Shown: positions 2,705-36,903 of the stretch, one piece after another
Numbering within the stretch: position 1 is the stretch's first letter
Layout: each line of letters opens with the position of its first letter
IMG/VR virus record: IMGVR_UViG_3300047552_000234
Coordinates: 1 to 36,903 of that record
DNA length: 36,903 nt
Origin: a virus
Taxonomy: Duplodnaviria > Caudoviricetes
Reading direction: 5' to 3' (one strand)
Program-made: the position numbers and the translations under genes
The notes under the pieces: model-generated
Databases searched by the model: none
What the model saw: the letters and a program-made list of their open reading frames with translations, nothing else
Told to the model about the DNA's origin: nothing

Positions 2705-3781
2705 ATGTCTAACATTCGAGCCAAAACCCCTGCGGTAGTCGCCCAAGATTTCCGCTTCGCGGGTGAATCCAGCCGCGCCATTGGTGCTAACGGCGAAATC
2801 AACGCTTCTAGCAAGAAAGACGTTCTGAATCGCAGCCTGCAACTAATGCAAGCCCAAGCTCGCGGTGAAGTGGTGACCGCTTCCGCTATGGAAGAACGTC
2901 AGCGCATCGTCGCTCAGAACAAAGAGCTGCTGCAAGCTGCCTTCGACAATCCGGGCGCTCACCGCGTTCTGGGTGAAAAGATGGCTGACCAACTGTACGT
3001 CACTGCTAACCGCAAGGGTTATGCTCGTCGTCTGATGGTTCGTCATGAACTCAAGCAGGGTGATATCCCGCGTTTCGCCGTTCGCAAGAAGAACGTTCAG
3101 GCTGTGATGCTGACTGGCCCCACTGCTATCAACACCCAGATCGCTCTCGACAAGTGGCTCACTCCTCCGGAACTTACGGTTGGTGCTCGTGTCTTCGTTC
3201 CGCAGACCGAGATCAACCAGTCCAACACCGATGTGCTGGAAGAGAAGTTCATTGAAGGTCTGGAAGCCATCATGGTGACCGAGGACCGTCTGCACTACAA
3301 CCTGACCAAGGCCACCATCGGCATCGACAACAACCTGACGATCATCACCGGCAACCTGTCGCCGCTGACCTTCATGTCTGTTCGTCAAAACGTGCAGAAG
3401 TGGGGTCTGAAGCCCATGTACTGCCTGATGGCCTCTGACCTGTTTGTCGACATCGTTGGTGAGTCTGGCTTCCAGCAAGCCATCGAACCCGTTGCTCGTC
3501 ACGAACTGGTTATGACCGGCGAACTGGCTATCCTGTACGGAATGACCCTAATCTCTGAAGACTATCGTCATCCGGAGCACAAGGTTCTGTCGCAGGGTGA
3601 GTTCATGATCTCGTCCGATCCGATGTTCCACGGTGCCTACTCGGATCGTGGCGGCGTTGATTCTCAACCGATCGACACCATCAACGAGCGTATCGTTGGA
3701 CGCGGCTGGCTGTTCCAAGAATCTCTGGCTATGGCTGTGGCTAACACCCGCTCCGTTGCCTGGGGTCAGCGTAACGCCTAA
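2705..3781 (+). CDS. Major capsid protein (HK97 fold)
   Basis: 358 aa, AAGGAA RBS, strongly biased codons, followed by a hairpin. HK97-like pattern: strand PPELTVGARVFVP, spine helix DVLEEKFIEGLEAIMVTEDRL, and MTGELAILYGMTLI. Confidence 0.8.
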   Translation: MSNIRAKTPAVVAQDFRFAGESSRAIGANGEINASSKKDVLNRSLQLMQAQARGEVVTASAMEERQRIVAQNKELLQAAFDNPGAHRVLGEKMADQLYVTANRKGYARRLMVRHELKQGDIPRFAVRKKNVQAVMLTGPTAINTQIALDKWLTPPELTVGARVFVPQTEINQSNTDVLEEKFIEGLEAIMVTEDRLHYNLTKATIGIDNNLTIITGNLSPLTFMSVRQNVQKWGLKPMYCLMASDLFVDIVGESGFQQAIEPVARHELVMTGELAILYGMTLISEDYRHPEHKVLSQGEFMISSDPMFHGAYSDRGGVDSQPIDTINERIVGRGWLFQESLAMAVANTRSVAWGQRNA

Positions 3782-3786
3782 TCAAT

Positions 3787-3810
3787 TGGGGGCTAAGAAA
3801 TTAGCCCCTA
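3787..3810 (+). terminator. GNRA-capped hairpin after major capsid gene (weak terminator or mRNA-stabilising stem)
   Basis: GGGGCTAA-GAAA-TTAGCCCC with no U-tract downstream. Confidence 0.55.
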
Positions 3811-3834
3811 GTTCAAACCCAAGGAACATCAGCT

Positions 3835-4260
3835 ATGAAATACAATATGTCTCTGGACCTCCTGGCTCATGCCGTCGAGTGCTTTGCTAACGGCAAGACG
3901 AATGAGGCCTCGGTTGCTTTCGCTCGTGCTGCCAAGCATCCTTCCATTCAGGCCGCTCTGGCTGCTATCGAAGCTACCAACAGCAAGGCTTTTGCTGTTC
4001 AAAGCAAAATGAAGGTCAAGGCTGCAAAGCCTTCCAAAGTATCTGCTCGTCTGTCGCGTCTTACCGCTTCGGAAGCTGATATGGACGCTCAAAACGTCGG
4101 TGAAGATCTTCGTATCGAAGTCGAAGAAAACAGCAAACTGCGCGAAGTGCAGGAAGCTGCCCTTGACGATTTCGAAGAAGATGACGCTGACGACATGGAA
4201 GCTACTGTGAATGCTCGCTTCTCTCAATCGTTGAAGAACATCCACGCGGCTTCTAAGTAA
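3835..4260 (+). CDS. Hypothetical virion/head-associated protein
   Basis: 141 aa, AAGGAA RBS, Ala-rich helical with an acidic patch, last gene before a strong terminator of the capsid operon. Confidence 0.6.
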   Translation: MKYNMSLDLLAHAVECFANGKTNEASVAFARAAKHPSIQAALAAIEATNSKAFAVQSKMKVKAAKPSKVSARLSRLTASEADMDAQNVGEDLRIEVEENSKLREVQEAALDDFEEDDADDMEATVNARFSQSLKNIHAASK

Positions 4261-4267
4261 GTACAAG

Positions 4268-4297
4268 AGGGGGCCTCAAAGGCCCCCTTTTTGTTTT
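4268..4297 (+). terminator. Rho-independent terminator
   Basis: AGGGGGCCT-caa-AGGCCCCCT followed by TTTTGTTTT. Confidence 0.9.
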
Positions 4298-4309
4298 GAA
4301 GGATGGAAG

Positions 4310-5002
4310 ATGGCTACGTATAACAATAAGCAGAAAGATCCTATCAAAAACCTAACCCTGATAGACGATCTTGTTATGGAAGGCGTTCAGCAGCAGTTCA
4401 AGAAAGCCTTTTCTGCCTTGACTCTTTGGACTACCGGCGATGACGGTATGAAAATGGTCCAGAGGTTATACGAAGACAAAAGCGTCAAAGAAAAATATCC
4501 GATCTGCCTTCTGTCGTTAGAAAGCTGGAATATCTTAGAAGAGAAGCGTAATACACGGGACTCTTCGATGCGTGGCATTAAGGTTGCAGCTTCAACAGAC
4601 TCAAGATCACTGCTGCGGTCTAAGATTCTGCCTATCGAATACGCTGTTACAGTAGAGTTCAGGACAAACTCTTGGGACGATATAAAGAGCTTTGCTAGGC
4701 ACTGGCTGTTCCACAGTGTTACTCGTCAACTGAACTTCCAGGTGGACTATGGTCTTACACCTGTTGACGTTAGAGTAGAGTTAGCAAAAACCTTTACATT
4801 TCCTAAGCGTGAAACTTCCCCTGAACAAGTTCAAGAATATGTAGCTACCAACTCCCTTACTATTGGTAACTACATCAACCTCCCCGATCTGTATTCCCAA
4901 GACATCATCGATGCTGTCGAGGTTTCTTTGGAAGCTCCAAGTACAGACGGGACTTCCCCAAATACTCAGTTGTGGACTTTCACTAGTCCCCGGAGAGTTT
5001 AA
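4310..5002 (+). CDS. Putative tail terminator / neck completion protein
   Basis: 230 aa alpha/beta pattern (KYPICLLSL, LPIEYAVTVEFRT, helix WDDIKSFARHWLF) typical of tail-completion proteins. Lies between capsid and baseplate genes. Confidence 0.4.
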   Translation: MATYNNKQKDPIKNLTLIDDLVMEGVQQQFKKAFSALTLWTTGDDGMKMVQRLYEDKSVKEKYPICLLSLESWNILEEKRNTRDSSMRGIKVAASTDSRSLLRSKILPIEYAVTVEFRTNSWDDIKSFARHWLFHSVTRQLNFQVDYGLTPVDVRVELAKTFTFPKRETSPEQVQEYVATNSLTIGNYINLPDLYSQDIIDAVEVSLEAPSTDGTSPNTQLWTFTSPRRV

Positions 5003-9274: not shown

Positions 9275-10034
9275 TCGCTTCCTTTCAAATCTCCGCTCTA
9301 TTCGTGGTGCCACCATCACTGAATATACTCAACTGACCCCAACGACCGCCAAGGTTATCGCTTCCATTATCGGAGATTTGTCTCCTGAAGAGTTCTGCGA
9401 TCGCATGACCGCTGCTCTGAAGAACGAAGCCGCTCCCATCCGTGCGTCCTTCCGCTGGCTGGACAAGGGCCGATCTATGATTGGTTTCGTTACGGCTGTT
9501 CCCCCGGTACGGGCTTATGATGCCAACACTGTGGAAGCCAAGTATCGTAAGATCACTGCGAACACCTTCATGGACAAATCTGACGAAAGCATTTGGGAAG
9601 TCAAGCCTGGTTCCGGTGGCTCTTACCTAACCCGCAAAGCCAACGATAATCTGGCCGAGCTCATCGAAGCTGCTCGCGTTAGCCCTCGTGGTTCCACCGC
9701 CCGTATGTATCAAGTGGTTCAAGCCTCTGTCAACAAGGGTGAGCTACTTGCCTACGTGGATGGTAACTCCAATCAGGTCCACTATGGTTTCTGCATGGAA
9801 GCTTCCGCTGACGAGTCCTACAAGGTTCTATCGCACACCACGAACGAAGTGGAGACAGTGCCCACTGCTCACATCGTAGCCGCTTACGAGATTGATATCC
9901 CCAAGAATATAACAGCGGCTATCACTCCTGCTGACAAGAAGAATTCCATCGACTACTATAAGAAGCTGTACTTCTACGACCCGGCTTATCTGGAAAAGGT
10001 AATCCGCGAGATCGAAGAGACGGCTGCCGCGTAA
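9267..10034 (+). CDS. Hypothetical protein (probable virion structural protein)
   Basis: 255 aa, GAGG RBS, biased codon usage like the capsid genes, followed by a terminator. Confidence 0.6.
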   Translation: MSDRFLSNLRSIRGATITEYTQLTPTTAKVIASIIGDLSPEEFCDRMTAALKNEAAPIRASFRWLDKGRSMIGFVTAVPPVRAYDANTVEAKYRKITANTFMDKSDESIWEVKPGSGGSYLTRKANDNLAELIEAARVSPRGSTARMYQVVQASVNKGELLAYVDGNSNQVHYGFCMEASADESYKVLSHTTNEVETVPTAHIVAAYEIDIPKNITAAITPADKKNSIDYYKKLYFYDPAYLEKVIREIEETAAA

Positions 10035-10043
10035 CCCACACCT

Positions 10044-10071
10044 GAGGCCCCTAGTGGGCCTCTTTTTGTTT
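10044..10071 (+). terminator. Rho-independent terminator
   Basis: GAGGCCC-ctagt-GGGCCTC followed by TTTTTGTTT. Confidence 0.88.
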
Positions 10072-10086
10072 CTGGAGTACATAATA

Positions 10087-11034
10087 ATGGGAAGCAGAGG
10101 AATAGACCTTGACGAAATTGACGACTTGTTTGATGCACCACCTAGAAAAAGACATCGAGCTTATTCGATAGGTGACGACGATGACACACCTGTTCGCCCG
10201 GATAAATTACCCATTGGTAAGAAAAAGAAAAGCGAAAAGGTCTTAACTCCAGCGGAACTGCGACGTAAAAAGTACCTAGAGAGTCTAAATCAGAATCTAA
10301 AGGAGAAGCTGAAACCTGTCCCTCTCCCAGGTGCTGACTCTGCTCTCCCGGCTAAGCACGCAAAAATTTGGTCTACTCTAGACATACCAGATTTTGAAAT
10401 TGACGGCAAACGCTTCGATGAGGATATCCCTCAAGAAGAGATGCACGAGGAAGATGAGTTAGCCGGGGAGGATAGCACTGCGGCTAACAAGAACGATGTG
10501 TTGATAGCCAAGCCGGCGAACCTTCGAGGTAACGTCTCCTCAAAGAAAGTTCGTGGCCTAGTTACTCTGTTTGGGCAGCGAGCCGATGCTGTCCTGCAGA
10601 TGTTAGAAGACGATCAGAATACCAACGGCGCTCTTACGCTTTTGCAGCGCAGTTTGCTGCAGACAATGGTAGACATTCTACCTGTTATAGAGCGTCAGGT
10701 CCGCCGATCTAAAGGTAAGAAGGGTGTGTATCAGCTAAACCAGATAGTCGCGCAGGTGAGAGAGCAGATTCAGGATATGCAAGCTCTGCGCGAAAAAGGT
10801 AATGCTGGTGCCACTGTAGTCGATCGCATAATTCGACCAGCTTACCTAGATTTAGCTGCTCAAGTACAGAATGCTTACATGGAAATAGAAGCACAAGCCC
10901 GTACTAGAATGAGCGAGGAGGAATTCAAAAGCTTCCGAGAAACTGCCCTGCTTTCCACGAAAAAGGGTCTTGCTGAGTATATAAATGGTCAGTATAACGC
11001 AATTCGGGAGGGCGTTATAACTAGTCTATCCTGA
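10087..11034 (+). CDS. Hypothetical protein (charged disordered N-terminus, helical C-terminus)
   Basis: Start moved to ATG 10087 because GGAG lies at 10074-10077 and the track start at 10054 falls inside the terminator. Confidence 0.65.
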   Translation: MGSRGIDLDEIDDLFDAPPRKRHRAYSIGDDDDTPVRPDKLPIGKKKKSEKVLTPAELRRKKYLESLNQNLKEKLKPVPLPGADSALPAKHAKIWSTLDIPDFEIDGKRFDEDIPQEEMHEEDELAGEDSTAANKNDVLIAKPANLRGNVSSKKVRGLVTLFGQRADAVLQMLEDDQNTNGALTLLQRSLLQTMVDILPVIERQVRRSKGKKGVYQLNQIVAQVREQIQDMQALREKGNAGATVVDRIIRPAYLDLAAQVQNAYMEIEAQARTRMSEEEFKSFRETALLSTKKGLAEYINGQYNAIREGVITSLS

Positions 11035-23299: not shown

Positions 23300-23862
23300 A
23301 AGCGATTTATACGCGAGCACGTTTGATTGAAGAGTTGAACCCTTTGTTCGTCAAGCTTGAAGACCTTCTTGCTAGACAGCGTGCTATGTTCGTTTCCAAG
23401 GCGGATAAGCTAGTGCCAATTGACATTGGAAACGAAGATCTACGAATCACTTCCGCCTTGGACGATATCTATACGGCGGAAGACCAGACGCGTAGAGCTC
23501 AAGCAGCAAAGCTGGCAAAACGCCTCTACTCTATCTATCATCCGGATAAGTCTACAGGGGATGCTATAACCTTTAGCCTAGTACGGAGATGCGCTAAAGA
23601 AGGTGATCTAGAGGCCCTCTACTTGTTTAGAAAGAAAGAGGGTGTTGATGACTTCACTGTAGAGGAAGTGCAGCTACTCAATCAAAAGCTAAAGATTCGA
23701 GCTTCTAAATTTCAAGGCTCCGCTTCTTACCAGGTAGCTCAGAGCTACATTAGCAACCGACAAAAGTTTATAACTGACTTATCTGACCTGCTGAACAAAC
23801 GTATTCAAATACTAGAACTTCAGCTTCTCGGCATGAATCCTAAATCCAGTTTGGAGATTTGA
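23227..23862 (+). CDS. J-domain-like (HPD motif) protein
   Basis: Helix-HPD-helix AKLAKRLYSIYHPDKSTGDAITFSLVRRC within an all-helical protein. Confidence 0.55.
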   Translation: MEKEEALREAFRTYQSYLGNRNLIEAIYTRARLIEELNPLFVKLEDLLARQRAMFVSKADKLVPIDIGNEDLRITSALDDIYTAEDQTRRAQAAKLAKRLYSIYHPDKSTGDAITFSLVRRCAKEGDLEALYLFRKKEGVDDFTVEEVQLLNQKLKIRASKFQGSASYQVAQSYISNRQKFITDLSDLLNKRIQILELQLLGMNPKSSLEI

Positions 23863-24956
23863 TGTCTATCAATAAAGACGACTTCTTAGTTGTAAGCCAC
23901 AAGAAAACGGACGATAAGACCGTACTCTTGCTTGTCAAAGCAAAGGCCAATGCATCCGACTCCAAGACCGTTAAGGCTGAGCTACAAGAAATGCCACATA
24001 TCAGGTCTAAGATTGATCACTACGAGGTAAAGAACGTGGTCCTAAACCTGGGCCCTAGACCTGAGCCCGGAAAAGTCTACGGATTTGACCTATCACGTGT
24101 TTATCTGGGAAGCCGGGAGCACGAGTATTTTGGTGACTTCCATTTCTTTACGCGCTTGAATAAAGAAGCGGGTAGCAAGCTATTCAAGGGTGCTGACTAC
24201 GTAGCTAAGAAGTTGCGGAAGCAAGGCTTGGACTTTCTGTTTGACTGTAACTGCGTATACGAGATCGTACCTAAACACGGTAAATACGCTGGCATGTATT
24301 ACCCTGAGCGTAAGAAGCAGGACATCCCACCCCGTATACAGCTGTCTGTAGACAAGTCTTTCGTAGAAAGCTCACCGATTACTGATGCCTACTCCTACGT
24401 ACTTATGCACGAGATCGGGCACCTAGTCCATCTTAAATTCTTACGAAATAAGACTGCCTTAAACGCCAAGTGGATCAACAAGTACTCCACGACTATCAAA
24501 CCCAGAGTAGTAACCAAAGAACAATCCCACGCGCTGTTGGATGAACTCCCTTCCCATCAAGAAGATGGCCTGCGTGGACTAGTAGCTTCTCTTGAGGATG
24601 ACGAAGCTAAAGCCGACCTCAAGCTAGTAATCAAGTGGATCAGAGAAACCAAGAGTATTGACTTGCGCGACTTAGACACTCTGATTCGTAACGGCGACAA
24701 TTCCAAAGAGGTACTGCGTGGGTTGTGGCCTACTATCCCGGTGCAATCAAAGAAGCTGTCGCCGCTGGTAACTGAGTATGCTTGTAAAAACGTACGCGAG
24801 CTGTTCGCTGAGTCTTTTGCTTTCTACATGCTTGGTTCAAAATTGCCAAACTCTATTAGCTCTCTGATGGAACGCAGTCTTCAAGAGGCTATCAATAACA
24901 AGGGACTACTGGATGAAGATGATGAAGACCCCGACCCCGAACGAGACTCCGACTGA
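23862..24956 (+). CDS. Zincin-like metallopeptidase (HExxH; anthrax-lethal-factor-like)
   Basis: VLMHEIGHLVH plus downstream TEYACKNVRELFAESFAFY supplying the third-ligand Glu. GGAG RBS and TGATG overlap support a start at 23862. Confidence 0.65.
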   Translation: MSINKDDFLVVSHKKTDDKTVLLLVKAKANASDSKTVKAELQEMPHIRSKIDHYEVKNVVLNLGPRPEPGKVYGFDLSRVYLGSREHEYFGDFHFFTRLNKEAGSKLFKGADYVAKKLRKQGLDFLFDCNCVYEIVPKHGKYAGMYYPERKKQDIPPRIQLSVDKSFVESSPITDAYSYVLMHEIGHLVHLKFLRNKTALNAKWINKYSTTIKPRVVTKEQSHALLDELPSHQEDGLRGLVASLEDDEAKADLKLVIKWIRETKSIDLRDLDTLIRNGDNSKEVLRGLWPTIPVQSKKLSPLVTEYACKNVRELFAESFAFYMLGSKLPNSISSLMERSLQEAINNKGLLDEDDEDPDPERDSD

Positions 24957-25037: not shown

Positions 25038-26213
25038 ATGATTAGCTCTAATGAAAATGTAGGTTCGTATACTGGAGACCCCGACTACACAGTAGTAGGA
25101 GCAGGTCTATCTGGTGTAACATTTGCGAGACGGAAAGCCGAATTAGGTGCTAAAGTCCTGGTAGTCGAAGAACGAAGCCACCTAGCGGGCAACGCTTATG
25201 ATTATATCAGTGAACACAGCAACCTGCTTGTTCACAAATATGGACCACACCTGTTTCATACCAACAGCCAGTTGGTATACGACTTTCTTTCTAGATTCAC
25301 AAAATGGCGTTTCTACGAACACCGTGTAAGAGCTAGGGTTTCTAACTCTTATACTGTCCCTGTCCCTGTCAATTTTGAATCGATACGCATCTTTGGGGAG
25401 CTAGACGCTATCCACGGTCGCGAAAACCTAGCTGAAAAACAGATCCTTGCTCTGCAGGCTCAATTTCCTCAGGACACTAGATATACTCTACGACAGCTTA
25501 AAAATCTCGGTGAGCAGTTCCCAGTCTTGAACGCCTTGTGGGAAACCGTCTACAACGCTATCTTTAAGAACTACACTCTAAAGATGTGGGGCTGCCCGCT
25601 CCAAGATTTGAACCCTTCTATTGCAGATCGAGTGCCACTAATAGCTGGTTACGATGACCGCTACTTCAAGGATACTTACCAATGTATGCCTGTTCATGGC
25701 TATGCACCCATGGTGAGAAGCATGTTGGAACATCCAAACATAAAGTTTGTTCCCAATCAATATTTTCGTAGATCAAAGACTAAATGCAAGATATACTACA
25801 CGGGGTCTATCGACGAGTACTTTGATTTCTGTTATGGGACACTACCTTATCGAGGTATAACCTTCAAGCACGAAGTCCTCCGAGAGTCCACTGCTAGTGA
25901 ATGGTTTAATTGGGGTAACGCCAGCACACTGAATGATCCGGGCCACCCTACAATAACGCGCACTTCCAGCATGTCAAGAATTGCTGGGTACGTATCACCG
26001 AGTAGAACCGATTGTCGTATTACAGAGACACCTAACAGCACTGGTAGATATTACCCTATGCCTACTACAGAAGCGCAGGCTCTGTATGATAAGTACGCGC
26101 TGGAGGCTGAAAAGCATCCTAATATCAAATTCGCTGGTAGACTCGGTTCCTATCAATACCTGAACATGGATCAAGCCGTTGCTCAGGCCCTGAAATACGC
26201 GGAGAATTTTTAG
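25038..26213 (+). CDS. glf: UDP-galactopyranose mutase
   Basis: FAD motif VVGAGLSG, ERSHLAGNAYD, HKYGPHLFHT, YTLKMWG, DDRYFKDTYQCMP, YTGSIDEYF, LPYRG, YYP, GRLGSYQYLNMDQAV. Confidence 0.93.
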   Translation: MISSNENVGSYTGDPDYTVVGAGLSGVTFARRKAELGAKVLVVEERSHLAGNAYDYISEHSNLLVHKYGPHLFHTNSQLVYDFLSRFTKWRFYEHRVRARVSNSYTVPVPVNFESIRIFGELDAIHGRENLAEKQILALQAQFPQDTRYTLRQLKNLGEQFPVLNALWETVYNAIFKNYTLKMWGCPLQDLNPSIADRVPLIAGYDDRYFKDTYQCMPVHGYAPMVRSMLEHPNIKFVPNQYFRRSKTKCKIYYTGSIDEYFDFCYGTLPYRGITFKHEVLRESTASEWFNWGNASTLNDPGHPTITRTSSMSRIAGYVSPSRTDCRITETPNSTGRYYPMPTTEAQALYDKYALEAEKHPNIKFAGRLGSYQYLNMDQAVAQALKYAENF

Positions 26214-26998
26214 TGATCATAAGCCACGAGCACAAATTTGTCTTTGTTCATAACCCCAAGGTAGCAGGTACAGCGATTCATCAGGCTTTGGAGCAGTTTC
26301 ACGACGACCCTATTCAGTTCTGGCACCAACGGTTCTTTCGAGAGCTGGATCGCGTAGTAGATGCTGCACACCTAACTCTACATGACCTAAAGCTGGTGAG
26401 GCCCCAGGTCTTCGATGGAAGCTACCGCTTTCTTACTGTGGTACGCGATCCGTATACTCGATTTGTTAGCGCCATTGCCGAACACTGTCGTCAGCATCAA
26501 ACAAAAGTACACTCGGAATTTTACCCTGAGGTATTCAAGTCGTGGCTAGATAACTTGGATGAAACCAATCTTCGATTCAACTGGAAGTACATTCATCTTT
26601 GCCCTCAGCACTACTTTACGCCTCAAGTGGAAAACGACTACCATTGGGTATGTGCCAAAAATGAACTGAAACAAAACTGGCGACACATCGTAGCCTTTTT
26701 GTTTAGGGAAGAACGATCAGATATCCAGCTCCCTACTGCTAGAGTTAGAGCTGATGATAGCCCTCTGAATTTGGACTACGTCTTGAAGTACAATGAAGGT
26801 CTTATCGAGCGTATCTACCACCAAGATTTTGTTCAATTTGATTTTGACCCTAAGACCTGTAGCCGAGAACCTCGTGGGCATTATGAGCGTGTAAATGGTA
26901 TTCATAGTCCCTACCTAGAATACCCTAGCTCAAACATCTGTACTCTGGGTGAACGCATCGCATTAGATCAACAACTTCGATTGCTAGAATCAAAATGA
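26213..26998 (+). CDS. PAPS-dependent sulfotransferase (sulfotransferase family 2)
   Basis: 5'-PSB motif FVHNPKVAGTAI, 3'-PB motif VVRDPYTRFVSA, HLCPQ, and C-terminal IYHQDFVQFDF. Confidence 0.82.
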   Translation: MIISHEHKFVFVHNPKVAGTAIHQALEQFHDDPIQFWHQRFFRELDRVVDAAHLTLHDLKLVRPQVFDGSYRFLTVVRDPYTRFVSAIAEHCRQHQTKVHSEFYPEVFKSWLDNLDETNLRFNWKYIHLCPQHYFTPQVENDYHWVCAKNELKQNWRHIVAFLFREERSDIQLPTARVRADDSPLNLDYVLKYNEGLIERIYHQDFVQFDFDPKTCSREPRGHYERVNGIHSPYLEYPSSNICTLGERIALDQQLRLLESK

Positions 26999-28281
26999 AA
27001 ATCCTGTTAACTGTTTTCCCTTCGATGGACATCGGGGGTATTGGTGCTGACATCCTCTGGAAGATGGCTGGCTTGCGTGAAGCTGGGCACAAGGTTCAGA
27101 TCGTCATGCTAGAAAACTCCACCATTGAAACCACGAAACGTGGGCAGACTAGTAGAGAAGGTTCCACATTCGGGGAAGACGGTTTGCAGATTCATCCGGT
27201 CGCGGGTTTTTATAACATCACCCGTATGGGTTATGGTTCTAAATCCCACATGGCTGCGGTCAAGAAGTTCTTTTCCAAATTTGACTTCATCATTCACGAG
27301 ATTCCTGGGCCCGACCCGGCTAAAACGGGGGATATCAAAGGACGTTGGCTTACTCTATACGAGCACGACATACCTCAGATCATTAGTGCCCACGATGCAA
27401 ACTTTAGCCGGTTGTATCCATATCTGTACAAAGTAGCCCCTTTCATCAAGGGTATCAGTTGTACTAATCAAGCTGGATACGCTGATCTGGCGAAGTTTCC
27501 TGCTCCACGTGCCTTCATTGGTGCACCGCATCCGGTACTGAGCTGGGAAAAGCAAAAGTCCTGGGACGATCGCAAGGCCCAAGCAGTTAGCGCTCACGTA
27601 TGGAAGGCCTGGAAGCATCATGACATGCAAGTTCGAGCCATTCCTACGCTGAAGAAAACCGGCTTTGTGATGTGCGGTTCAGGCATTGAATACCACTATA
27701 TGTCAGGTGCTAAACGGAAAGAGAAATATGGCGATATTTGGGAAAAAGCTGTCGCAGCAGGAATGGACTACCGTGGGATGCTTAGTAGTGATGACTTGCA
27801 CAAGCTATATCGCAAGTCACGTGTTATTGTGGATACCGCTTGGTCTAAGCGGTTTATGAATCTTGGCTGCCACTTTAACCGTTCTATCATCGAGGGTTAT
27901 AACAATGGCTGTATTCCAGTCGTCGTACACGAAAATATGTACGAAGATGGTTTTCAGTTGCGCATGTTCAAAGCAGGTAAGACCCACTTTGAAATCAAAG
28001 CTGATCACAAACCTAAAGAGCTTGCCGAACTAATCGATCACGCAGCAAACCTCTCTGCTGATGAAGCAGATGCAATGCTGCAACGGGGGCGAAAGGTACT
28101 GCTCAAATTTTTCGACTATCGTGTCACTAGCCTTGAGTATATCAAGCTTGGGCAAGGTAAACCCGCAGGTGTGTATCCAAAGTTAGAAACTGGAAAAGCC
28201 ACCAAAAAGCTCAAAGACGACGCAGAAAAGTACAATGTAAAAGTACAGAAGATGCGGGACAAGCTAGATAGAAAGAAATGA
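26995..28281 (+). CDS. Glycosyltransferase, GT-B fold (GT4-like)
   Basis: MKILL...DIGGIG...GHKVQIV N-terminus; WKAWKHHD; C-terminal LYRKSRVIVD...FNRSIIEGYNNGCIPV nucleotide-binding signature. Confidence 0.8.
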   Translation: MKILLTVFPSMDIGGIGADILWKMAGLREAGHKVQIVMLENSTIETTKRGQTSREGSTFGEDGLQIHPVAGFYNITRMGYGSKSHMAAVKKFFSKFDFIIHEIPGPDPAKTGDIKGRWLTLYEHDIPQIISAHDANFSRLYPYLYKVAPFIKGISCTNQAGYADLAKFPAPRAFIGAPHPVLSWEKQKSWDDRKAQAVSAHVWKAWKHHDMQVRAIPTLKKTGFVMCGSGIEYHYMSGAKRKEKYGDIWEKAVAAGMDYRGMLSSDDLHKLYRKSRVIVDTAWSKRFMNLGCHFNRSIIEGYNNGCIPVVVHENMYEDGFQLRMFKAGKTHFEIKADHKPKELAELIDHAANLSADEADAMLQRGRKVLLKFFDYRVTSLEYIKLGQGKPAGVYPKLETGKATKKLKDDAEKYNVKVQKMRDKLDRKK

Positions 28282-29210
28282 AATACGCAGTCCTTTCCTA
28301 CGGTCGACCAGAAGTACAGCTAACTCTACAGAATATTCCTGCCTCTCTACTTCACACCGTTGAACTCTGGGTGACTCCAAAGGAATACACCGCTTATAAA
28401 GCTGGCTGGTATGCGAGCAAGGTGAAGTCCATCAACTGCTGGCCTACGTATATAGACTGTGCCCCAAAGAAAAGGAAATGGGCTGCTTTAAATTTCAACG
28501 AAGACTACATGCTCATTGACGACGACCTTAGTCTTTACGTGTGGTCCAAAAAGCATGACAAGTTTGTTAAGCCAGAGTTATCCCCTAAACGCTTTGAGAG
28601 AGAATGGCTAGAAGAAATCCCTAGCCTGTTCTCTACCTTTCCGGGAGTTAGCCTTGGGAACAAGTTCATGGCTGATCCTTACGTTAGAGAAAATGGAGTC
28701 ATGAAGCCTAACAATGTGGGGTTCTGTTTTTCAGGCTTCGCGAAAGACTCTCCGAAGGACAAGCTACTCTATAATAGAGTCTTTGCTTTTACTGATATCA
28801 GTCTGCCGTTGCAGATGTTCCAGCGCACGGGCAAGAGCCTTATATACTATGGTCTATGCTATAACCATGCAAGTCATCCCACTCTAGCGACCTCAGGTAT
28901 GAGTTCGTATCGTGACGACTTTGTCATTATTGACAGCGCTATCAAGATGGGGCAACTTTTTCCAGGTATCGTCACTGGACTAAAGAACACAGGTAATAAA
29001 GGCGGTGGAGCAACGCTAACCAAATTCTTCAGCAGAGTCAAGAAAAAGGTGAGTGATAACAATCTCAAAGCAACCGAGAAATGGCTAGAAGAAATGAAAG
29101 CCTACTACGGTCTTTCAAGGCTACCAAAGTTGTTTGAGTATGACGATCATATGCCTAGAGCAGACATCATCGAGCTATTCCAGTGGCACTGGAAAAGAGC
29201 AAAACAGTAA
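28278..29210 (+). CDS. Glycosyltransferase, GT-A fold (TET/JBP-associated DNA glycosyltransferase-like, TAGT)
   Basis: YAVLSYGRP...TL, MLIDDDL (DxD), FTDISLPLQ and SGMSSYR follow the pattern of phage DNA-base GT-A enzymes. Confidence 0.7.
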   Translation: MKYAVLSYGRPEVQLTLQNIPASLLHTVELWVTPKEYTAYKAGWYASKVKSINCWPTYIDCAPKKRKWAALNFNEDYMLIDDDLSLYVWSKKHDKFVKPELSPKRFEREWLEEIPSLFSTFPGVSLGNKFMADPYVRENGVMKPNNVGFCFSGFAKDSPKDKLLYNRVFAFTDISLPLQMFQRTGKSLIYYGLCYNHASHPTLATSGMSSYRDDFVIIDSAIKMGQLFPGIVTGLKNTGNKGGGATLTKFFSRVKKKVSDNNLKATEKWLEEMKAYYGLSRLPKLFEYDDHMPRADIIELFQWHWKRAKQ

Positions 29211-29254
29211 TGAACGGCCCCACTAAATTTTCAAATAGAAAGAGATAGCTAACC

Positions 29255-29785
29255 ATGGAATACGGAAGTCGAACTGTCGTTGTGTGCGTTGGTCTCCCAG
29301 GGTCGGGTAAGACTACGCTGGCAGACATGATTCATAAGAAAACTGGTGGGGCGCGTATCAATGCCGACGCTGTACGCGCGAGTATCAGTACGGATCTAAA
29401 ATTTGAAGAAGACGACCGTCTAATCCAGGCGACTCGTGTTGGTAGTCTAGTAGGCCTGGCATTACACCCCTATACTTTTACTCGACCCATTAAGCAATCT
29501 ACTATTGACCGCTTGAACAAGGTTGCAGTAGTAGACTTCATTTGCCCGCGTGAAGAATATTGGGAGGAATTCTGTTCTGCAGTTCTTTTTAGAGGTTTAC
29601 CCCCTATCCACATCCTGAGAGTGTGGATGAACACTATCACAAAAGATCAGTGCCGTTTCAAGGACACCGCGGAGTTTTACCGCCCACCCTCAGCCCCTAA
29701 TTTTTCTATCAACGAATTCTTGTCCCTTGAGAGCTTGGACGAAGTAGCTAAGCAAATTGCGAACGCTGCGCTAGGAAAGAAGTAA
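29255..29785 (+). CDS. cysC: Adenylyl-sulfate (APS) kinase-like P-loop kinase
   Basis: GLPGSGKTTLA; NADAVRASISTDLKFEEDDRLIQATRVG matches the CysC pattern DGDNVRxxLxxDLGFSxxDRxENxRRVG; VDFICP and YRPPSAP match the SFISP and YExPxxP motifs. Confidence 0.72.
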   Translation: MEYGSRTVVVCVGLPGSGKTTLADMIHKKTGGARINADAVRASISTDLKFEEDDRLIQATRVGSLVGLALHPYTFTRPIKQSTIDRLNKVAVVDFICPREEYWEEFCSAVLFRGLPPIHILRVWMNTITKDQCRFKDTAEFYRPPSAPNFSINEFLSLESLDEVAKQIANAALGKK

Positions 29786-29786
29786 G

Positions 29787-30026
29787 ATGTCAATACCTAT
29801 GCCTTTGCCTATTACGATGGAGAACCTCTCATCGGACTCCTCACCTACTCCCCCTGAAAATATTTCCAAACTGCAAGAGGAGTTACGTCGCCTTTTGAAT
29901 TCTCTATCTATCGAAAACGGTTCGGATACCCCAGACTACGTGCTGGCCGAATACCTAATCTCATGCCTTCAGGCCTATGAAAAGGCGATAGCCGCACGTG
30001 AAGCTTGGTTCTCTGGGGACGAGTGA
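29787..30026 (+). CDS. Small hypothetical phage protein
   Basis: 79 aa with a compact helical core LLNSLSIENGSDTPDYVLAEYLISCL; stop overlaps the next start. Confidence 0.6.
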   Translation: MSIPMPLPITMENLSSDSSPTPPENISKLQEELRRLLNSLSIENGSDTPDYVLAEYLISCLQAYEKAIAAREAWFSGDE

Positions 30027-30991
30027 TGAAGCAGCTATCTATGTTCGAAGAAGAGGGCAGAAGCCTATTTCTACCTAAGCATCAGAATAAAGTAGAATCT
30101 ATTGTCAAATTTTGGGTAGAGCGGCATAACATCTATCTAAGACGCGCCAGTGGTAAACACCCAAAGCCTTGGACTGCTGATCCTGCGCTGCGGAACTACC
30201 GCTTCTGTAATATCTATCGAGAGCTGGATACTGTCAGTGATTGGATAATCCGTAAGGTCATTACCAAGTACGAGGACAATCCGAACCTGTGGTTCATGTT
30301 AGGAGTTTCTCGCCTGATTAACTGGCCTGACACCCTTCAGCACCTGATGGATGACAAGGTGTGGCCTGTGTCAAAGTTTAACCCTGACAATGTGTATGCG
30401 TCTTTGAAAGATCGTAAGGCTAAGGGGGAGAAAATTATCACAGGGGCTTACATTGTAAATAGCGTATTCCCGCTAGGCGCAAACCCCAAAGATAAGAGTA
30501 AGATCTACTATATCCCATACTACGGTCTACAAGGAATGTGGGATGCACGCAAAGATCTGTCGGAAGCGGCGAAGTCTTCTATGGGTGATTTCGTTAGCAC
30601 TCTGACTAAATGCCATGGATGGGGCGCATTTATGGCTTATCAAGTAGCGGTGGATCTTAGCTACTCTAACAAATGGTTAGGCAAAGCCCCAGATATCAAT
30701 ACCTTCACTAGCCCTGGTCCTGGAACAACTCGTGGTATGAATCGCCTGCTCAACGGTGCGCGGAAGCCCATTGTCACAGGGGCTGCTCTAAATCCCCACA
30801 TGATTCAACTGCGTTCTGACATGAACTCTTTAGTGAAAGAGCACATCTCCTACCCTTGGACTAAAAACCCAAAGACTGGATTTGCTGATCTAAGCATGAG
30901 TAACGTCAGCAACTGCCTTTGTGAATACGACAAATACTGTCGCATCATTAGTGACGAGGGTGAACCTCGGTCGCGTTACGCTGGTCATTAA
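30026..30991 (+). CDS. aGPT-Pplase1 family protein (HhH-glycosylase fold; 5-hmdU DNA kinase helical-domain family)
   Basis: ERHNIYLRR...PWTADPALRNYRFCNIYRELD, TGAYIV, HhH-like HGWGAFMAYQVAVDL, GPGTTRG, NCLCEYDKY. TGATG overlap supports a start at 30026. Confidence 0.82.
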   Translation: MKQLSMFEEEGRSLFLPKHQNKVESIVKFWVERHNIYLRRASGKHPKPWTADPALRNYRFCNIYRELDTVSDWIIRKVITKYEDNPNLWFMLGVSRLINWPDTLQHLMDDKVWPVSKFNPDNVYASLKDRKAKGEKIITGAYIVNSVFPLGANPKDKSKIYYIPYYGLQGMWDARKDLSEAAKSSMGDFVSTLTKCHGWGAFMAYQVAVDLSYSNKWLGKAPDINTFTSPGPGTTRGMNRLLNGARKPIVTGAALNPHMIQLRSDMNSLVKEHISYPWTKNPKTGFADLSMSNVSNCLCEYDKYCRIISDEGEPRSRYAGH

Positions 30992-31003
30992 CATGGAGAA
31001 ATA

Positions 31004-33064
31004 ATGCAAGTCTTTTATCCTAACGACGTAGATGAAGCGCTCTACGCTGCGCTTTCCAACCTAATCAAGGTTGGGATCGAAACTCCATCAAGAAATGGCC
31101 CGCAGCTTCGATTCGCAACACCTGTCACCACTGTCTGGCAACCAGAGGTAAACCGTACTTCAACTGATAAGACGCGTGCCAATAATCCATTCTTCTCTAT
31201 CATGGAGAGTCTGTGGATGTTAGCCGGTCGTAGTGAGGTAGCTTTCCCAGCGTTCTACGCAAAGCAAATTTTGGAGTATTCTGACGACGGTCTCACAATG
31301 AATGGGGCTTATGGTCATCGTTGGCGCAATTACTTTGGTTATGACCAAATCCAAACAATCGCGAAAGAGCTGCAAAAGAACCCCACTAGCCGTAGGTGTG
31401 TGATGTCTATGTGGGATGGGCGTCTTGACCTTGTCAACCAAACCTCCAAAGATCTCCCTTGCTTGTCAGGAGACACTGTTCTTCAATCCCCTGAAGGTAA
31501 GAAGACGCTTAGGCAGCTTGCTAACGCCTTTTCTTCTGGAGATATTACTAAGTATCCCGTTTACTCTGTAGACTTCTCGGCAGAAAATTGGCCTATTAGT
31601 CTTCAGTACTGCACCAAAGTATGGTCTTCGGGTAAAAAGCAAACCTCCAAAATCCTATTGGATAACGGGAAAACTATTCGAGCCACAGATAATCATCGCT
31701 TCTTTGTGAAGAAGCGTTTGATGGAGGGTAAAAGAACCCTTGATACTTATCAAATAGAAACCGAGTTAAAAGACTTGAAAGTAGGGGATATTCTGTGCTC
31801 GGGGTATTTCAGACCTGACCCAAAGGGTTATATTCAGCGCAAAAAGTTTGTAAAGGGCAATACTGTTTTCAAGAATTTGGTAAAAGAACATAGAGATTAC
31901 TACGAGTTCAAAACTGGTGAATCCTTAGCTTTAGACGAGATTATTCACCATAAAAACGGAAAGCCTGATGACAACAGATTCAAGAATTTAGAGAAAGAGT
32001 CGGCCGCTGATCACAACCGACATCATCAGATTATAAACAATCGACATCTAGCCATGTCTAAAGAAGAAGTCAAGGCTAGAGGGCTGAAACATGCCAAGTC
32101 TATGGCTGAAAGAAAAACCAGGATTATATCTGTATATGGGTTAACTACTTGGATTGCTCTCTGCGCGAAAAAACCTACTACTCAACAAGAGAAGCTAAAA
32201 CAGAGCTTCTATTCTAGAGAGCAAAAGCGTCTTTCTAAAGAAAAGGCAGAGAGTAATTTACTTGGTAAAGAGATTCAGTCCTTGCAACTTAGTGAAATCT
32301 CTAGTCGGCAGAAAAAGTCACCCACATTTGGTAAGATCGTAGCTATTCAAAAGCATCGTGTTGAAGAAGTTTTTGACTTTACGGTCCCTAAATTTCATAA
32401 CGCTATACTGGATAACGGGGTTGTAACTCATAACTGCAACCTACAGGTACTATTTGACGCCGGGCTAGGTCGTCTCAATATGACGGTCACCAATCGCAGC
32501 AACGATTTGATCTGGGGTGCTTATGGTGCGAATGTAGTTCACTTCTCGTTTCTGCACGAATACATGGCAGCATTGACAGGACTGCCGGTTGGTTGCTATT
32601 ATCAGGTAAGTAACAATCTTCATATCTATCCTGAGTTCGAAATTACCAGCAGATTCATTACTAAGGCGAATGGCTCCTGGAAGCTAAAATACAAACACGA
32701 ACCTGAGATGAGTATTCGACCTGTCACCAGAGGTACTGAATTCCTTGTGTACGGGTTTGATTCAACTTCAAATGGTATTGCTGATTTTGATTCTGACCTG
32801 CAAACGGCTTTATACGACCCCAGCCATACTGAGCTTGTATCTTTCATTCTGCCTGGATTCAACTACGTAATCGCCCCCGCCAGACTTTCTTACGCTCTAT
32901 ACAAGAAGGGTGACACGCTCTCTGCAGTGAACGTTCTAAAGGAAGCTTTAGAAGCGGTCAAAGACAAAGTGGTTAGCAGTCCGATAAGGGAGCTAGTCTA
33001 TCTAGACTCTGCTCTTAATGCCCTAAACGCTTGTCAGCTCTGGATGCAAAGGAAAATCAAGTGA
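31004..33064 (+). CDS. Thymidylate-synthase-family dUMP hydroxymethylase, intein-containing
   Basis: SRNG, NPFFSIMESLWMLAGR, GAYGHRWR, SRRCVMSMWD, KDLP|C, NRSNDLIWGAYGANVVHFSFL (Asn at the specificity position indicates dUMP), NNLHIY. 361 aa after intein removal. Confidence 0.88.
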   Translation: MQVFYPNDVDEALYAALSNLIKVGIETPSRNGPQLRFATPVTTVWQPEVNRTSTDKTRANNPFFSIMESLWMLAGRSEVAFPAFYAKQILEYSDDGLTMNGAYGHRWRNYFGYDQIQTIAKELQKNPTSRRCVMSMWDGRLDLVNQTSKDLPCLSGDTVLQSPEGKKTLRQLANAFSSGDITKYPVYSVDFSAENWPISLQYCTKVWSSGKKQTSKILLDNGKTIRATDNHRFFVKKRLMEGKRTLDTYQIETELKDLKVGDILCSGYFRPDPKGYIQRKKFVKGNTVFKNLVKEHRDYYEFKTGESLALDEIIHHKNGKPDDNRFKNLEKESAADHNRHHQIINNRHLAMSKEEVKARGLKHAKSMAERKTRIISVYGLTTWIALCAKKPTTQQEKLKQSFYSREQKRLSKEKAESNLLGKEIQSLQLSEISSRQKKSPTFGKIVAIQKHRVEEVFDFTVPKFHNAILDNGVVTHNCNLQVLFDAGLGRLNMTVTNRSNDLIWGAYGANVVHFSFLHEYMAALTGLPVGCYYQVSNNLHIYPEFEITSRFITKANGSWKLKYKHEPEMSIRPVTRGTEFLVYGFDSTSNGIADFDSDLQTALYDPSHTELVSFILPGFNYVIAPARLSYALYKKGDTLSAVNVLKEALEAVKDKVVSSPIRELVYLDSALNALNACQLWMQRKIK
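31460..32434 (+). mobile_element. Intein (325 aa) with HNH homing endonuclease
   Basis: Block A CLSGDT, block B IRATDNHRFF, block F EVFDFTV, block G GVVTHN followed by Cys+1. Internal IIHHKNGKPDDNRFKNLE...HNRHH HNH motif. DNA is more A/T-rich than the exteins. Confidence 0.93.
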
Positions 33065-33426
33065 ACATTCTTACCAAAGAACAGATTCGTGAACATCGCA
33101 CCGACTTTACTAGATTGCGGGAAATAGCCAACGCGGCTATTGATATGTGCGAGCTGAAAGATCGGTCATACGGCGCCTCTTGGAAACGTCGGGGTGGCCC
33201 TGGAGCTTTCATGGTTATGGCTCGTAAATGGGATCGCCTAGAAGCTCAGATGGAAATTGCTGACTATAACATCTTTGACATTCGTAAAGACGCGGTAGAA
33301 GATCTAGACGATACGATTTTGGATCTTGTCAACTACCTGCTCCTCATCATGGAAACCCGGAAATGGATCCAGAACCATCGCAAGACTGCAGATACACAAC
33401 CTATACCGACTGATACTAGTGGTTAA
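33061..33426 (+). CDS. Nucleotide-modification-associated domain 1 (Nmad1/DUF1599-like, all-alpha NTP pyrophosphatase fold)
   Basis: KDRSYGASWKRRG...ARKWDRL...EDLDDTILDLVNYLLL. GTGA overlap with the hydroxymethylase stop supports a start at 33061. Confidence 0.72.
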   Translation: MNILTKEQIREHRTDFTRLREIANAAIDMCELKDRSYGASWKRRGGPGAFMVMARKWDRLEAQMEIADYNIFDIRKDAVEDLDDTILDLVNYLLLIMETRKWIQNHRKTADTQPIPTDTSG

Positions 33427-33874: not shown

Positions 33875-34839
33875 GCTCAAACGCAGTATACCAACACTCC
33901 AAGGTGTTTGCTTCCCTAAAGGTAGTCAAAGAGCGAATACAAGGGAATTTGACTACTAGTCAATATCTACAAGCCTACGATGAGTATCTGGAAAAAGCTA
34001 TAACCCCAATTATCGTACATACCAAATTCTTCGACAGCTTCTTAGCTAGATTAGTTGGCTGGCAGGAAAAGAACTTTCGAAGGAAGGTTTCTTTTCTTAA
34101 CCGGCATGATTTCCCTTCGCTTGCTATCACTTTCCTTCTGCAGAATACACCCGAGGGGAGATTGAAGGCCTATCGTAACCTGTCTTTGGACAGGGGTATA
34201 TGTATCGAGTTCATAAAACTCTTCCACTCTAATTTAGACTCCTACATAAAGGCCTGTAATTGTGAGCTACTAAATCCCGGCACTGGCAAGTTTGATATTT
34301 CCTATGCGTTACAGGTGAAGTTGTTAATGGAGGAATCACTTAAGGCAGACACTCCATTGCTTAACGTGTACTCCGAATCACATTTCTGGTTAGCCAAGGC
34401 TTTAGACTTCAAAGAGATTATCGTAGAGAAGTACACTCGATTGTGTTTGAACACTGCGAAGTTTGACTACGAAGACTACTTCAAATGCCAACTCCAACTA
34501 GACGATATCATTTCGGTTTATCTAACCGCAGTAAGCAGGGCCATAGACAAGTGCGATTCTAAACAAGGGGTGTTGACAACATACATCAAGAACTGGCTAA
34601 AAACTGGTAGAACACAGGCTGCGAAGCTGCTCGACAAGAAATCGATCTCTGTCACGACCGAGTCCTTGAATCAGTTGGCGGACGTACAGTCTATAAACGC
34701 CGAAGATGACAGGACTACGGAAGAGCGTATAAAACAGATTCGGCTCCTAGCAAAACTTGCTGACCCATTAGGGGCTGCCCGCGTAACCCTTGGGATAGAA
34801 GAAATTCTATCCGAAAAAGAGTTTAACCTTAACCTATGA
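33871..34839 (+). CDS. Putative phage sigma-70-family factor (region 2 present, no clear region 4.2)
   Basis: IVEKYTRLCLNTAK...LDDIISVYLTAVSRAIDKCDSKQGVLTTYIKNWLK aligns by eye with sigma70 region 2 (LxxxNLRLVxxIAK...LDLIQEGxxGLxKAVDKFDxxxGxxFSTYAxWWI). Confidence 0.6.
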   Translation: MSSNAVYQHSKVFASLKVVKERIQGNLTTSQYLQAYDEYLEKAITPIIVHTKFFDSFLARLVGWQEKNFRRKVSFLNRHDFPSLAITFLLQNTPEGRLKAYRNLSLDRGICIEFIKLFHSNLDSYIKACNCELLNPGTGKFDISYALQVKLLMEESLKADTPLLNVYSESHFWLAKALDFKEIIVEKYTRLCLNTAKFDYEDYFKCQLQLDDIISVYLTAVSRAIDKCDSKQGVLTTYIKNWLKTGRTQAAKLLDKKSISVTTESLNQLADVQSINAEDDRTTEERIKQIRLLAKLADPLGAARVTLGIEEILSEKEFNLNL

Positions 34840-35594
34840 AAAACCACACCCTCAATCAAATTACGCCTATCGTACAGGAACTCCTGGAGATTCAGAACAC
34901 TCTAAACACTAAGTACCTTGGTGCGGAGTGGACCAAGAAAGCTGTTGAGCGTAATGTTGTAGACTATCGCGCTGCTATTGTAGATGAAGCTGCGGAACTA
35001 CTGCGTAGTGACATGTCTTGGAAGTTCTGGACCAAAGAAGTAGCAGCGCCTAATCTAAAGAACGAGCGTATTGAATTTGTAGACATCCTACACTTTCTGA
35101 TGTCCGACTCAATTGCTTTTCGAGGTATCCAGCATTCGGCTTCCCAGATTAGTGAAGCGTATATGTACGCTCATAGCTCCATCTTTGGTGCTGATTCTGA
35201 CCTTGGTGATACACCATTTCGTTTTAATGACTCAGTACCTCGGGACATCACGAAAGCGCGTAACGAACTATACTACTTTCTAGCCGCTTCTAACAGGGAC
35301 TACTTCATTGATGCCTGGTTCCACTTTGCCCGCTTAGGGTTTTATCTGGGTATCAGCTTTGGTGCCACGGTCGCTTTCTATCGTGGAAAGGCTGTTCTTA
35401 ACTCTTTCCGGATTGATAATGGGTACAAGAACAACACCTACATCAAGGAGTGGGCACCTGGAATGGAAGATAATGATATGCTAACGAAATTCATTGAAGA
35501 CTATCAAAAGACTACGGATGGTCCGCCGCCTAGCCGCGAGCACATTCTACAATATCTGACCGATACCTACTCCCGGGTAAAGGCAACCCTGTAA
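34836..35594 (+). CDS. dut: Dimeric (all-alpha) dUTPase / dNTP pyrophosphatase
   Basis: LEIQNTLN, DEAAELL..SWKFW, IEFVDILHFLMS, KAVLNSFRIDNGY, YIKEW..EDN: Campylobacter/trypanosome-type dUTPase motifs. Confidence 0.85.
   Translation: MKNHTLNQITPIVQELLEIQNTLNTKYLGAEWTKKAVERNVVDYRAAIVDEAAELLRSDMSWKFWTKEVAAPNLKNERIEFVDILHFLMSDSIAFRGIQHSASQISEAYMYAHSSIFGADSDLGDTPFRFNDSVPRDITKARNELYYFLAASNRDYFIDAWFHFARLGFYLGISFGATVAFYRGKAVLNSFRIDNGYKNNTYIKEWAPGMEDNDMLTKFIEDYQKTTDGPPPSREHILQYLTDTYSRVKATL

Positions 35595-35624: not shown

Positions 35625-36903
<1,279 letters not shown>

Follow-up and report, generated by a model that had tools for sequence, protein, structure and literature searches.

A cassette of nine contiguous genes on the + strand of a phage genome fragment is predicted, from its gene content, to place a sulfated glycan containing galactofuranose (Galf) on 5-hydroxymethyluracil (hmU) in the phage DNA, a reading to which we assign a probability of about 0.55. 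The cassette lies at 25038..33426 of the IMG/VR virus record IMGVR_UViG_3300047552_000234 (Caudoviricetes), whose positions 1 to 36,903 make up the whole stretch that we analysed (the window). This 36.9-kb record encodes a major head protein, a family-A DNA polymerase, a primase, a sigma factor, and a single-stranded DNA-binding protein (SSB); among cultured phages it is nearest to the jumbo-phage group of RSL1, BcepSauron, and Motura, and the window is part of an RSL1-like jumbo phage. In the pathway that we propose, an intein-spliced hydroxymethylase would convert deoxyuridine monophosphate (dUMP) to hm-dUMP in place of thymidine monophosphate, and the phage polymerase would incorporate hmU. 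A GT-B glycosyltransferase would most likely add the first sugar to hmU, and a TAGT-like GT-A glycosyltransferase would add Galf, the donor being UDP-galactofuranose (UDP-Galf) made by UDP-galactopyranose mutase (Glf). A sulfotransferase would sulfate the galactose (Gal)/Galf unit, whether already attached to the DNA as a glycan or still in the form of the nucleotide-sugar, using 3'-phosphoadenosine 5'-phosphosulfate (PAPS) provided by a protein resembling adenosine 5'-phosphosulfate (APS) kinase, with APS and UDP-Gal supplied by the host. The purpose of such a modification would presumably be to shield the DNA from restriction and from sugar-specific nucleases.

Evidence for the modified base comes from the dUMP hydroxymethylase, a member of the thymidylate synthase family identified by its motifs (31004..33064, +). 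The motifs KDLP/C (the slash marks an intein site) and RSNDLIWGAYGANVVHFS are present and agree with those of YuA gp17 and RSL1 ORF230; in the second (RSND) motif, 17/18 residues are identical to YuA gp17. The protein is interrupted by an intein with an HNH homing endonuclease (31460..32434, +; Pfam Intein_splicing 1.2e-15, HNH_3 5.6e-4), which a preliminary description of this DNA had overlooked. The intein comprises 325 residues (153-477), begins with CLSG, ends with HN immediately before the catalytic Cys478 (HN/C), and matches NCBIfam TIGR01445 (residues 153-235) and TIGR01443 (residues 455-478); it was absent, as judged by motif or length, from the nine hydroxymethylase homologues checked. 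Around the catalytic Cys the intein-free relatives read KDLPC or DVPC, as expected of the thymidylate synthase fold. In an alignment that included ThyA, the segment RSND...GAN aligned to RAND...SD of the CMP enzyme MilA: Asp169 is retained, indicating that the enzyme is not of the 5-hydroxy-dCMP (5hodCMP) synthase type, and Asn occupies the E. coli 177 position, where MilA has Asp, which points to dUMP and not dCMP as substrate. An Asp three residues ahead of the Cys (the Leu143 position) is shared with MilA and YuA gp17; a polar residue here goes with a hydroxymethyl product instead of a methyl one. Positions 143, 169, and 177 are described as markers of substrate and product in the sections of PMC13326640 drawn on here, which for the Leu143 position state a correlation with product and nothing further.

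The presence or absence of genes was scored in a set of 19 genomes and large fragments from RSL1-like phages. Core genes had led to 17 of them and genes of the cassette to the other two (G001 and G004); the set excludes shorter fragments, among them G003, G007, G008, and G018. The divergent hydroxymethylase was found in 7 of the 19 genomes, none of which has ThyX, and every one of the remaining 12 encodes ThyX or canonical ThyA. Such mutual exclusion is the pattern expected if hmU replaces thymine (T). Together with the motifs, it lends good support to the earlier proposal of 5hmU in place of T, and the hydroxymethylase very probably makes hm-dUMP that the phage polymerase builds into DNA. Between the peptidase and SWIM/sigma genes, the position taken by the cassette is occupied by ThyX in BcepSauron and by deazaguanine clusters in Motura and BCSR5, indicating that this is a nucleotide-modification slot. 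Its conserved upstream border in RSL1-like phages is an HExxH zinc peptidase (23859-24956 of the window, PHROG 17197).

Two glycosyltransferases are encoded in the cassette. The GT-B (26995..28281, +) matches Pfam Glycos_transf_1 at 1.7e-5, below the cut-off. Its predicted model (predicted local distance difference test score 93.8) has a GT4-like fold, with matches to 6eji (Z 27.7), PimA (Z 26.1), and, third, T4 alpha-glucosyltransferase (AGT; Z 26.0, root-mean-square deviation 4.0, 349 aligned residues). Searches with this protein as a single query gave no match among cultured phages or among viral contigs. A six-sequence alignment yielded 164 viral matches, of which the best 80 were used, forming 47 clusters at 90% identity; in these the GT-B neighbours a dUMP-hydroxymethylase-like gene (26 clusters), a TET/JBP gene (20 clusters), or neither (1 cluster). 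Linkage to a source of hydroxymethyl-pyrimidine in 46/47 clusters supports well the proposal of sugar transfer to DNA, and the GT-B is predicted to add a sugar to a hydroxymethyl-pyrimidine in DNA. Since GT-B genes are found alone beside hmU or TET genes, the first sugar would be theirs to add.

The GT-A (28278..29210, +) scored below the cut-off for Pfam TAGT (9.8e-5; 22.8 bits, cut-off 27.5), matched a PHROG annotated as beta-glucosyl-HMC-alpha-glucosyltransferase (3e-11), and is 24% identical (E 6e-16) to RSL1 ORF234, a full TAGT member. In the TAGT motif R...DDD...ED, R10 and DDD81-83 are invariant and TD replaces ED. A well-supported clade (100/99) unites the GT-A of all five glf cassettes with that of one glf-free locus. 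Because this clade accompanies glf, the protein, apparently a divergent TAGT relative, is our candidate Galf transferase. Both transferases are basic in the jumbo clade (isoelectric point (pI) 9.2-9.8; 9.5 for the GT-B of the window); because the GT-Bs linked to TET are acidic, little weight can be given to charge here. Taken together, hmU in the DNA is in all likelihood glycosylated by the cassette transferases.

Some loci with GT-B homologues carry further sugar genes. An FkbM-type methyltransferase adjoins the GT-B homologue in small hmU phages (L014:4132-4794, L023:7635-8306, L059, L114), making these loci candidates for a methylated sugar on DNA. In two others, a gene resembling UDP-sulfoquinovose synthase lies directly 5' of a GT-B homologue that is 39-42% identical (L050:8045-11266, L051:8035-11266); these synthase-like genes scored 320-325 bits against an NCBIfam cut-off of 575, and both phages carry aGPT-Pplase1 (hereafter Pplase1) and dUMP hydroxymethylase, marking them as candidates for a sulfonated sugar on hmU.

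The galactofuranose donor is attributed to Glf (25038..26213, +; Pfam GLF 4.3e-47). Phmmer matched it to solved UDP-galactopyranose mutases at E 2e-77 to 6e-45, and the motifs GPH-x-FHT, Y..K.WG, RVP, YF, ITR, YYP, and GRLGSY aligned with those of the solved enzymes, covering the binding motifs for flavin adenine dinucleotide and substrate. The NCBIfam TIGR00031 score was 297 bits, against a cut-off of 304, and the gene is retained in 5 relatives. Glf is thus predicted to make UDP-Galf. Members of the Glf family that use N-acetylgalactosamine, fucose, or arabinose donors exist. Overall, we think it probable that Galf is present in the DNA glycan, with less assurance than for glycosylation as such.

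Sulfation rests on two genes. The first encodes a family-2 (carbohydrate-type) sulfotransferase (26213..26998, +; Pfam Sulfotransfer_2 2.5e-11, above the cut-off), in which the PAPS-binding motifs HNPKVAGT and VRDPYTRF (VRDP..RF.S) are conserved across 11 phage homologues. These motifs align with heparan sulfate 6-O-sulfotransferase, the lone and weak (E 0.55) solved relative of the profile. In phage loci the sulfotransferase always lies beside glf or a TAGT gene, and it adjoins glf in 6/6 glf-bearing loci; this gene context points to Gal/Galf as its acceptor. The second gene encodes a short APS-kinase-like P-loop kinase (29255..29785, +; Pfam APS_kinase 5.2e-7, above the Pfam cut-off). A P-loop and the APS-binding segment D.R...DL.F....R are present; D38, R41, F50, and R55 are invariant, and the segment aligns with 6b8v. 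When the kinase model was submitted to Foldseek, 29 of the 32 matches listed, including the first 12, were APS kinase or related sulfate-activation entries (template-modelling score 0.5-0.6, E about 2e-4). The protein works like an APS kinase at best and is not a canonical CysC; its predicted role is to supply PAPS.

The preliminary description had the phage make both donors itself, with an APS kinase producing PAPS for the sulfotransferase. The latter idea agrees with the fold matches and the co-distribution of the two genes, and must be qualified by the N-terminal, non-canonical nature of the kinase match. Self-supply of both donors was not borne out: the window has no gene for ATP sulfurylase, and the phage must draw UDP-Gal from its host. 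Likewise, the host must supply APS, as a CysD-like gene was present in just 1/12 relatives (G009). The cassette of this relative (L043:3564-15773) is larger, with four GT-A genes, a GalE-like epimerase, and a pair of sulfotransferases.

Next, we examined how the sulfation genes are distributed. The sulfotransferase was found in 6/7 of the hmU genomes and 1/12 of the others, and the APS-kinase-like gene showed the same counts (6/7 and 1/12; Fisher p=0.0017 for either gene with the hydroxymethylase, uncorrected for kinship). The hmU genome lacking both, G010, has hmU genes and Pplase1. The non-hmU genome with the kinase, G011, carries it next to a gene for a Stf0-like sulfotransferase, and the two are flanked by queD and queC. 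The seven-enzyme set of the cassette also occurs in four other contigs (L038/L052, L045, L046/L131, L048/L133) in three other gene orders. RSL1, L002, L003, L004, and L043 combine the kinase, sulfotransferase, 2-3 TAGT genes, Pplase1, and the hydroxymethylase with different sugar-activation genes. On a tree of core genes, from which Motura is omitted (no SSB match), cassette types are scattered, and glf-type and RSL1-type cassettes are found in close sisters, which fits repeated swapping; in the sulfotransferase and glf trees, branches are long and resolution is poor.

Sulfation genes are coupled to genes for a DNA base a second time in G007 (L160:3181-13331) and G011 (L173:11219-18417), where 7-deazaguanine clusters of queD, queC, TGT-like, queE, and folE genes fill the same slot and the kinase and a Stf0-like sulfotransferase are inserted between queD and queC; a sulfated deazaguanine base is a candidate product. 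We tentatively extend this to a general proposal, which we consider possible but less likely than not: RSL1-like phages would carry a swappable sulfation arm, composed of the short APS kinase and either of two unrelated sulfotransferase families, that sulfates different DNA bases, giving a sulfo-galactofuranosyl glycan on hmU in the window, other sulfated sugars in RSL1, and a sulfated 7-deazaguanine derivative in G007 and G011; sulfation of the nucleotide-sugar may precede its transfer.

Several observations weigh against a sulfated Galf glycan on DNA. The fold of the GT-B is matched both by T4 AGT and by transferases that act on lipids and small molecules, and since the T4 AGT score is close to those of the lipid-acting enzymes, it is not diagnostic for DNA. 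The kinase matches Pfam APS_kinase over residues 7-66 only, and the NCBIfam APS-kinase model over residues 8-65 with 26 bits against a cut-off of 139, so that neither a full-length match nor the lid was found. The sulfotransferase has a pI of 6.4, neutral like Glf and unlike the two basic transferases; this charge, and the constant adjacency to glf, suggest that it may act on the nucleotide-sugar and not on DNA. G007, a fragment, carries a sulfotransferase of the window type and the kinase alongside ThyX and deazaguanine genes. G006 (locus L036/L039:8698-12487; 230 kb, 97% complete) has ThyX and retains glf and the sulfotransferase, both of which lie on short branches and keep every invariant motif, and profile searches of this genome found no hydroxymethylase, kinase, TAGT, or GT-B gene; of its 264 open reading frames (ORFs) of at least 100 aa, 150 were scanned with Pfam, and these yielded just a GT-D-like domain, also present in RSL1. 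Finally, glf lies within 6 kb in 5 of the 9 best (of 21) cellular sulfotransferase loci, and the L208 locus is a cluster for surface polysaccharide with gnd at its end.

Several of these points underlie the alternative that survives best, which we nevertheless regard as unlikely, namely that the hydroxymethylase and transferases glycosylate DNA and that the products of glf and of the sulfotransferase and kinase genes modify a virion protein or a glycan not on DNA, such as the host O-antigen or capsule (receptor masking). The intact glf and sulfotransferase of a genome without hmU genes, the GT-D-like gene elsewhere in G006 and RSL1, the surface-glycan setting of the nearest cellular sulfotransferases, and the neutral charge of the enzyme would all suit such a target. 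Against it, the sulfotransferase and kinase track the hydroxymethylase across the 19 genomes, and in more than one gene order, that of the glf-free RSL1 among them, the sulfation genes alternate with genes for basic TAGT proteins. The gene order of G006 resembles a deletion of the block from GT-B to hydroxymethylase with both flanks left in place, and on the core tree its sister, with weak support (0.59), is a phage with a full Galf cassette. A Pfam scan found no flippase, polymerase, or tail genes within the cassette. For the preliminary description, which had proposed sulfated Galf on 5hmU, the link between kinase and sulfotransferase holds; Galf and sulfate on DNA are moderately supported, given G006, G007, and the surface-glycan homologues.

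The bacterial homologues themselves cut both ways. The closest cellular sulfotransferases (27-42% identity) lie beside glf and glycosyltransferase genes in O-antigen-type clusters (L208, L210 Pantoea leporis), and such glf-bearing clusters are a likely source of the phage glf-sulfotransferase pair. The enzymes with which these clusters assemble surface glycans, of the GT2, GT1, and DUF4422/GT8 types, are missing from the phage cassette. The proximity to glf ties the enzyme to Gal/Galf acceptors; this context helps the assignment of a sulfated Galf glycan to DNA and equally allows a surface-glycan role. In L208:1-8527 and L210, a family-2 sulfotransferase is the last gene before gnd in glf-bearing surface-polysaccharide clusters, which we take to resemble the Klebsiella D-galactan cluster and which are candidates for a sulfated galactan O-antigen.

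It is improbable that the P-loop protein is instead a nucleotide kinase or a 5-hydroxymethyldeoxyuridine (5-hmdU) DNA kinase (5-HMUDK), in which case the anionic group would be phosphate and the sulfotransferase would either be a passenger or rely on PAPS from the host. The weak, N-terminal match to the APS-kinase model would allow this, as would an LDGD motif that reads INAD and a lid region that differs; moreover, hmU phages need an hm-dUMP kinase, and the 5-HMUDKs demonstrated in the consulted portions of PMC8989533 are P-loop proteins. The first 12 fold matches listed argue otherwise, and the gene is missing in G010, which has hmU and no sulfotransferase, and present beside a Stf0-like sulfotransferase in the non-hmU G011 and G007. 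Searches with the 5-hmdU kinase family PF18748, for which no positive control matched, and with the single sequence of YuA gp13 each gave no match in 4 genomes. More improbable still is direct sulfation of the hmU hydroxymethyl, replacing the ViI/M6 phosphate and yielding a leaving group resolved by Pplase1 (to thymine or another adduct), which would suit the presence of Pplase1, whose role is only putative, without an amino-acid:DNA transferase or known kinase found in relatives, but which sits poorly with the occurrence of Pplase1 and hydroxymethylase without sulfotransferase in G010 and many small phages and with a carbohydrate-type sulfotransferase that keeps to glf or TAGT neighbours.

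The Pplase1 gene (aGPT-Pplase1, PF18723; 30026..30991, +; Pfam 1.9e-48) encodes a protein with a helical DNA-acting fold that is 51% identical to RSL1 ORF231; its profile has no solved structural relative. We rejected the Pfam label of this family, HMUDK_hel, as proof of a kinase, since the 5-hmdU DNA kinases demonstrated so far are P-loop proteins. In the parts of PMC8989533 used here, the ViI/M6-type pathway requires two enzymes, a 5-HMUDK of the P-loop type and an amino-acid:DNA transferase of clade 2, and M6 gp55 is dispensable in a lysate assay; the protein of the window belongs to clade 1. A profile search for the transferase (PF18724) found none in the window cassette, RSL1, or G001-G006, with YuA as a positive control (5e-50) and with the genome of the window represented by just 37 kb. 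As no amino-acid:DNA transferase was found in these relatives, the cassette, judged from its sequence, is not a ViI/M6 pathway, and the ViI/M6/phiW-14 type suggested by the preliminary description was not upheld.

As to layout, the nine genes that had been named as one contiguous run were all confirmed in place. The stop/start overlaps described as a sign of translational coupling (TAGTG, ATGA, ATGA) are real and not special to the cassette: 5/8 junctions overlap within it and 14/27 elsewhere in the window. Since overlaps are this frequent outside the cassette, they say little about it, and we rejected them as specific evidence. Between the kinase and Pplase1 lies a 79-aa ORF (29787..30026, +; PHROG 31227, unknown function) with no homologue in any of the related loci listed, and it is probably not part of the modification pathway. 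The last ORF (33061..33426, or from 33031, +), a small helical protein associated with nucleotide modification, overlaps the hydroxymethylase stop through GTGA and is 44% identical to RSL1 ORF229; its homologues adjoin dUMP hydroxymethylases in many loci. Its earlier label, Nmad1, is unconfirmed: PHROG 1485 (6.7e-6) was the sole match, with none in Pfam or NCBIfam. Beyond the cassette, a dimeric dUTPase-family pyrophosphatase (34836..35594, +; Pfam dUTPase_2 1e-17) is a plausible dUMP supplier or dTTPase. The SSB-like protein (35625-36903, PHROG 15004) has a very long Asp/Glu/Lys-rich tail and continues past the window end. Short GC-rich inverted repeats lie 3' of capsid-region genes (3781-3835, 4260-4310, 10034-10087); two of the three precede T runs and are terminator-like, on sequence grounds only.

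If the prediction is correct, sulfate esterified to a DNA base or to its glycan would be new chemistry in the DNA-modification arms race, the cassette would encode new enzymes, one transferring Galf and the other sulfating DNA or a nucleotide-sugar, and a use would be found for the short APS-kinase-like genes of phages. The earlier statement that no phage base is known to carry Galf or sulfate holds for sulfate and not entirely for Galf, which has been proposed for phage RL38JI (according to the passages of PMC13326640 available). Our literature search found no sulfated phage base; its scope did not extend to some supplements or to Iyer et al. 2013 (NAR 41:7635), where a prediction of this kind would most likely have appeared. 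Term searches of the accessible text of PMC8989533, PMC13458397 (with supplement), PMC7824862, PMC13229309, PMC12619734, PMC8256090, and PMC8670742 found no sulfated base either, and 'sulf', 'furanos', and 'mutase' do not occur in the available text of bioRxiv 2023.12.21.572611.

Among known systems, the hypermodification of ViI, M6, PaMx11, and phiW-14 shares the dUMP hydroxymethylase and aGPT-Pplase1 (PMC5889632, its Table 3), and differs in its clade-2 amino-acid:DNA transferase, absent from the window and the 7 relatives searched. Phage TAGT and GT-B enzymes glycosylate DNA, building mono- and disaccharides that include the anionic 3-deoxy-D-manno-octulosonic acid (Kdo), as far as the available text of bioRxiv 2023.12.21.572611 goes. 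The TET-associated DNA glycosyltransferases described there (Pyle et al.) resemble those of the window in comprising GT-A (R...DDD...ED) and GT-B enzymes, which there act on hydroxymethyl-pyrimidines, and trypanosome base J is likewise a glucosyl-hmU. In TET/JBP systems, however, the substrate is TET-made hmC or JBP-made hmU, and the ED motif of the TET-associated enzymes is TD in the GT-A of the window. In Rhizobium phage RL38JI (Pootjesviridae), which makes galactosyl-5-hydroxycytosine, a phage glf likewise accompanies DNA glycosyltransferases, and its UDP-Galf was proposed as the first-sugar donor for DNA; there the base is 5-hydroxycytosine, made by a D169N synthase, and not hmU, galactose is shown and Galf proposed, and sulfation genes go unmentioned in the sections consulted (PMC13326640).

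The closest known counterpart is Ralstonia phage phiRSL1, the sole cultured phage among 50,697 records that matches the sulfotransferase of the window, and on whose DNA chemistry our literature search found no report. In the same slot, its ORF229-ORF238 (AB366653.2) include an APS-kinase-like gene, a family-2 sulfotransferase, TAGT genes, Pplase1 (51%), the dUMP hydroxymethylase, and ORF229, the homologue of our last ORF. We had considered ORF236 as a clear homologue of the arabinose-activation enzyme of RB69 and rejected this; tblastn matched only Enterococcus and Stenotrophomonas phages and missed RB69, so the two share only a nucleotidyltransferase/APH architecture. The phiRSL1 cassette differs from that of the window in having neither glf nor GT-B and, in their place, three TAGT genes and nucleotidyltransferase/APH-kinase sugar-activation genes. 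Each module of the cassette has precedent; sugar, phosphate, amino-acid, and Kdo additions to phage DNA are well documented.

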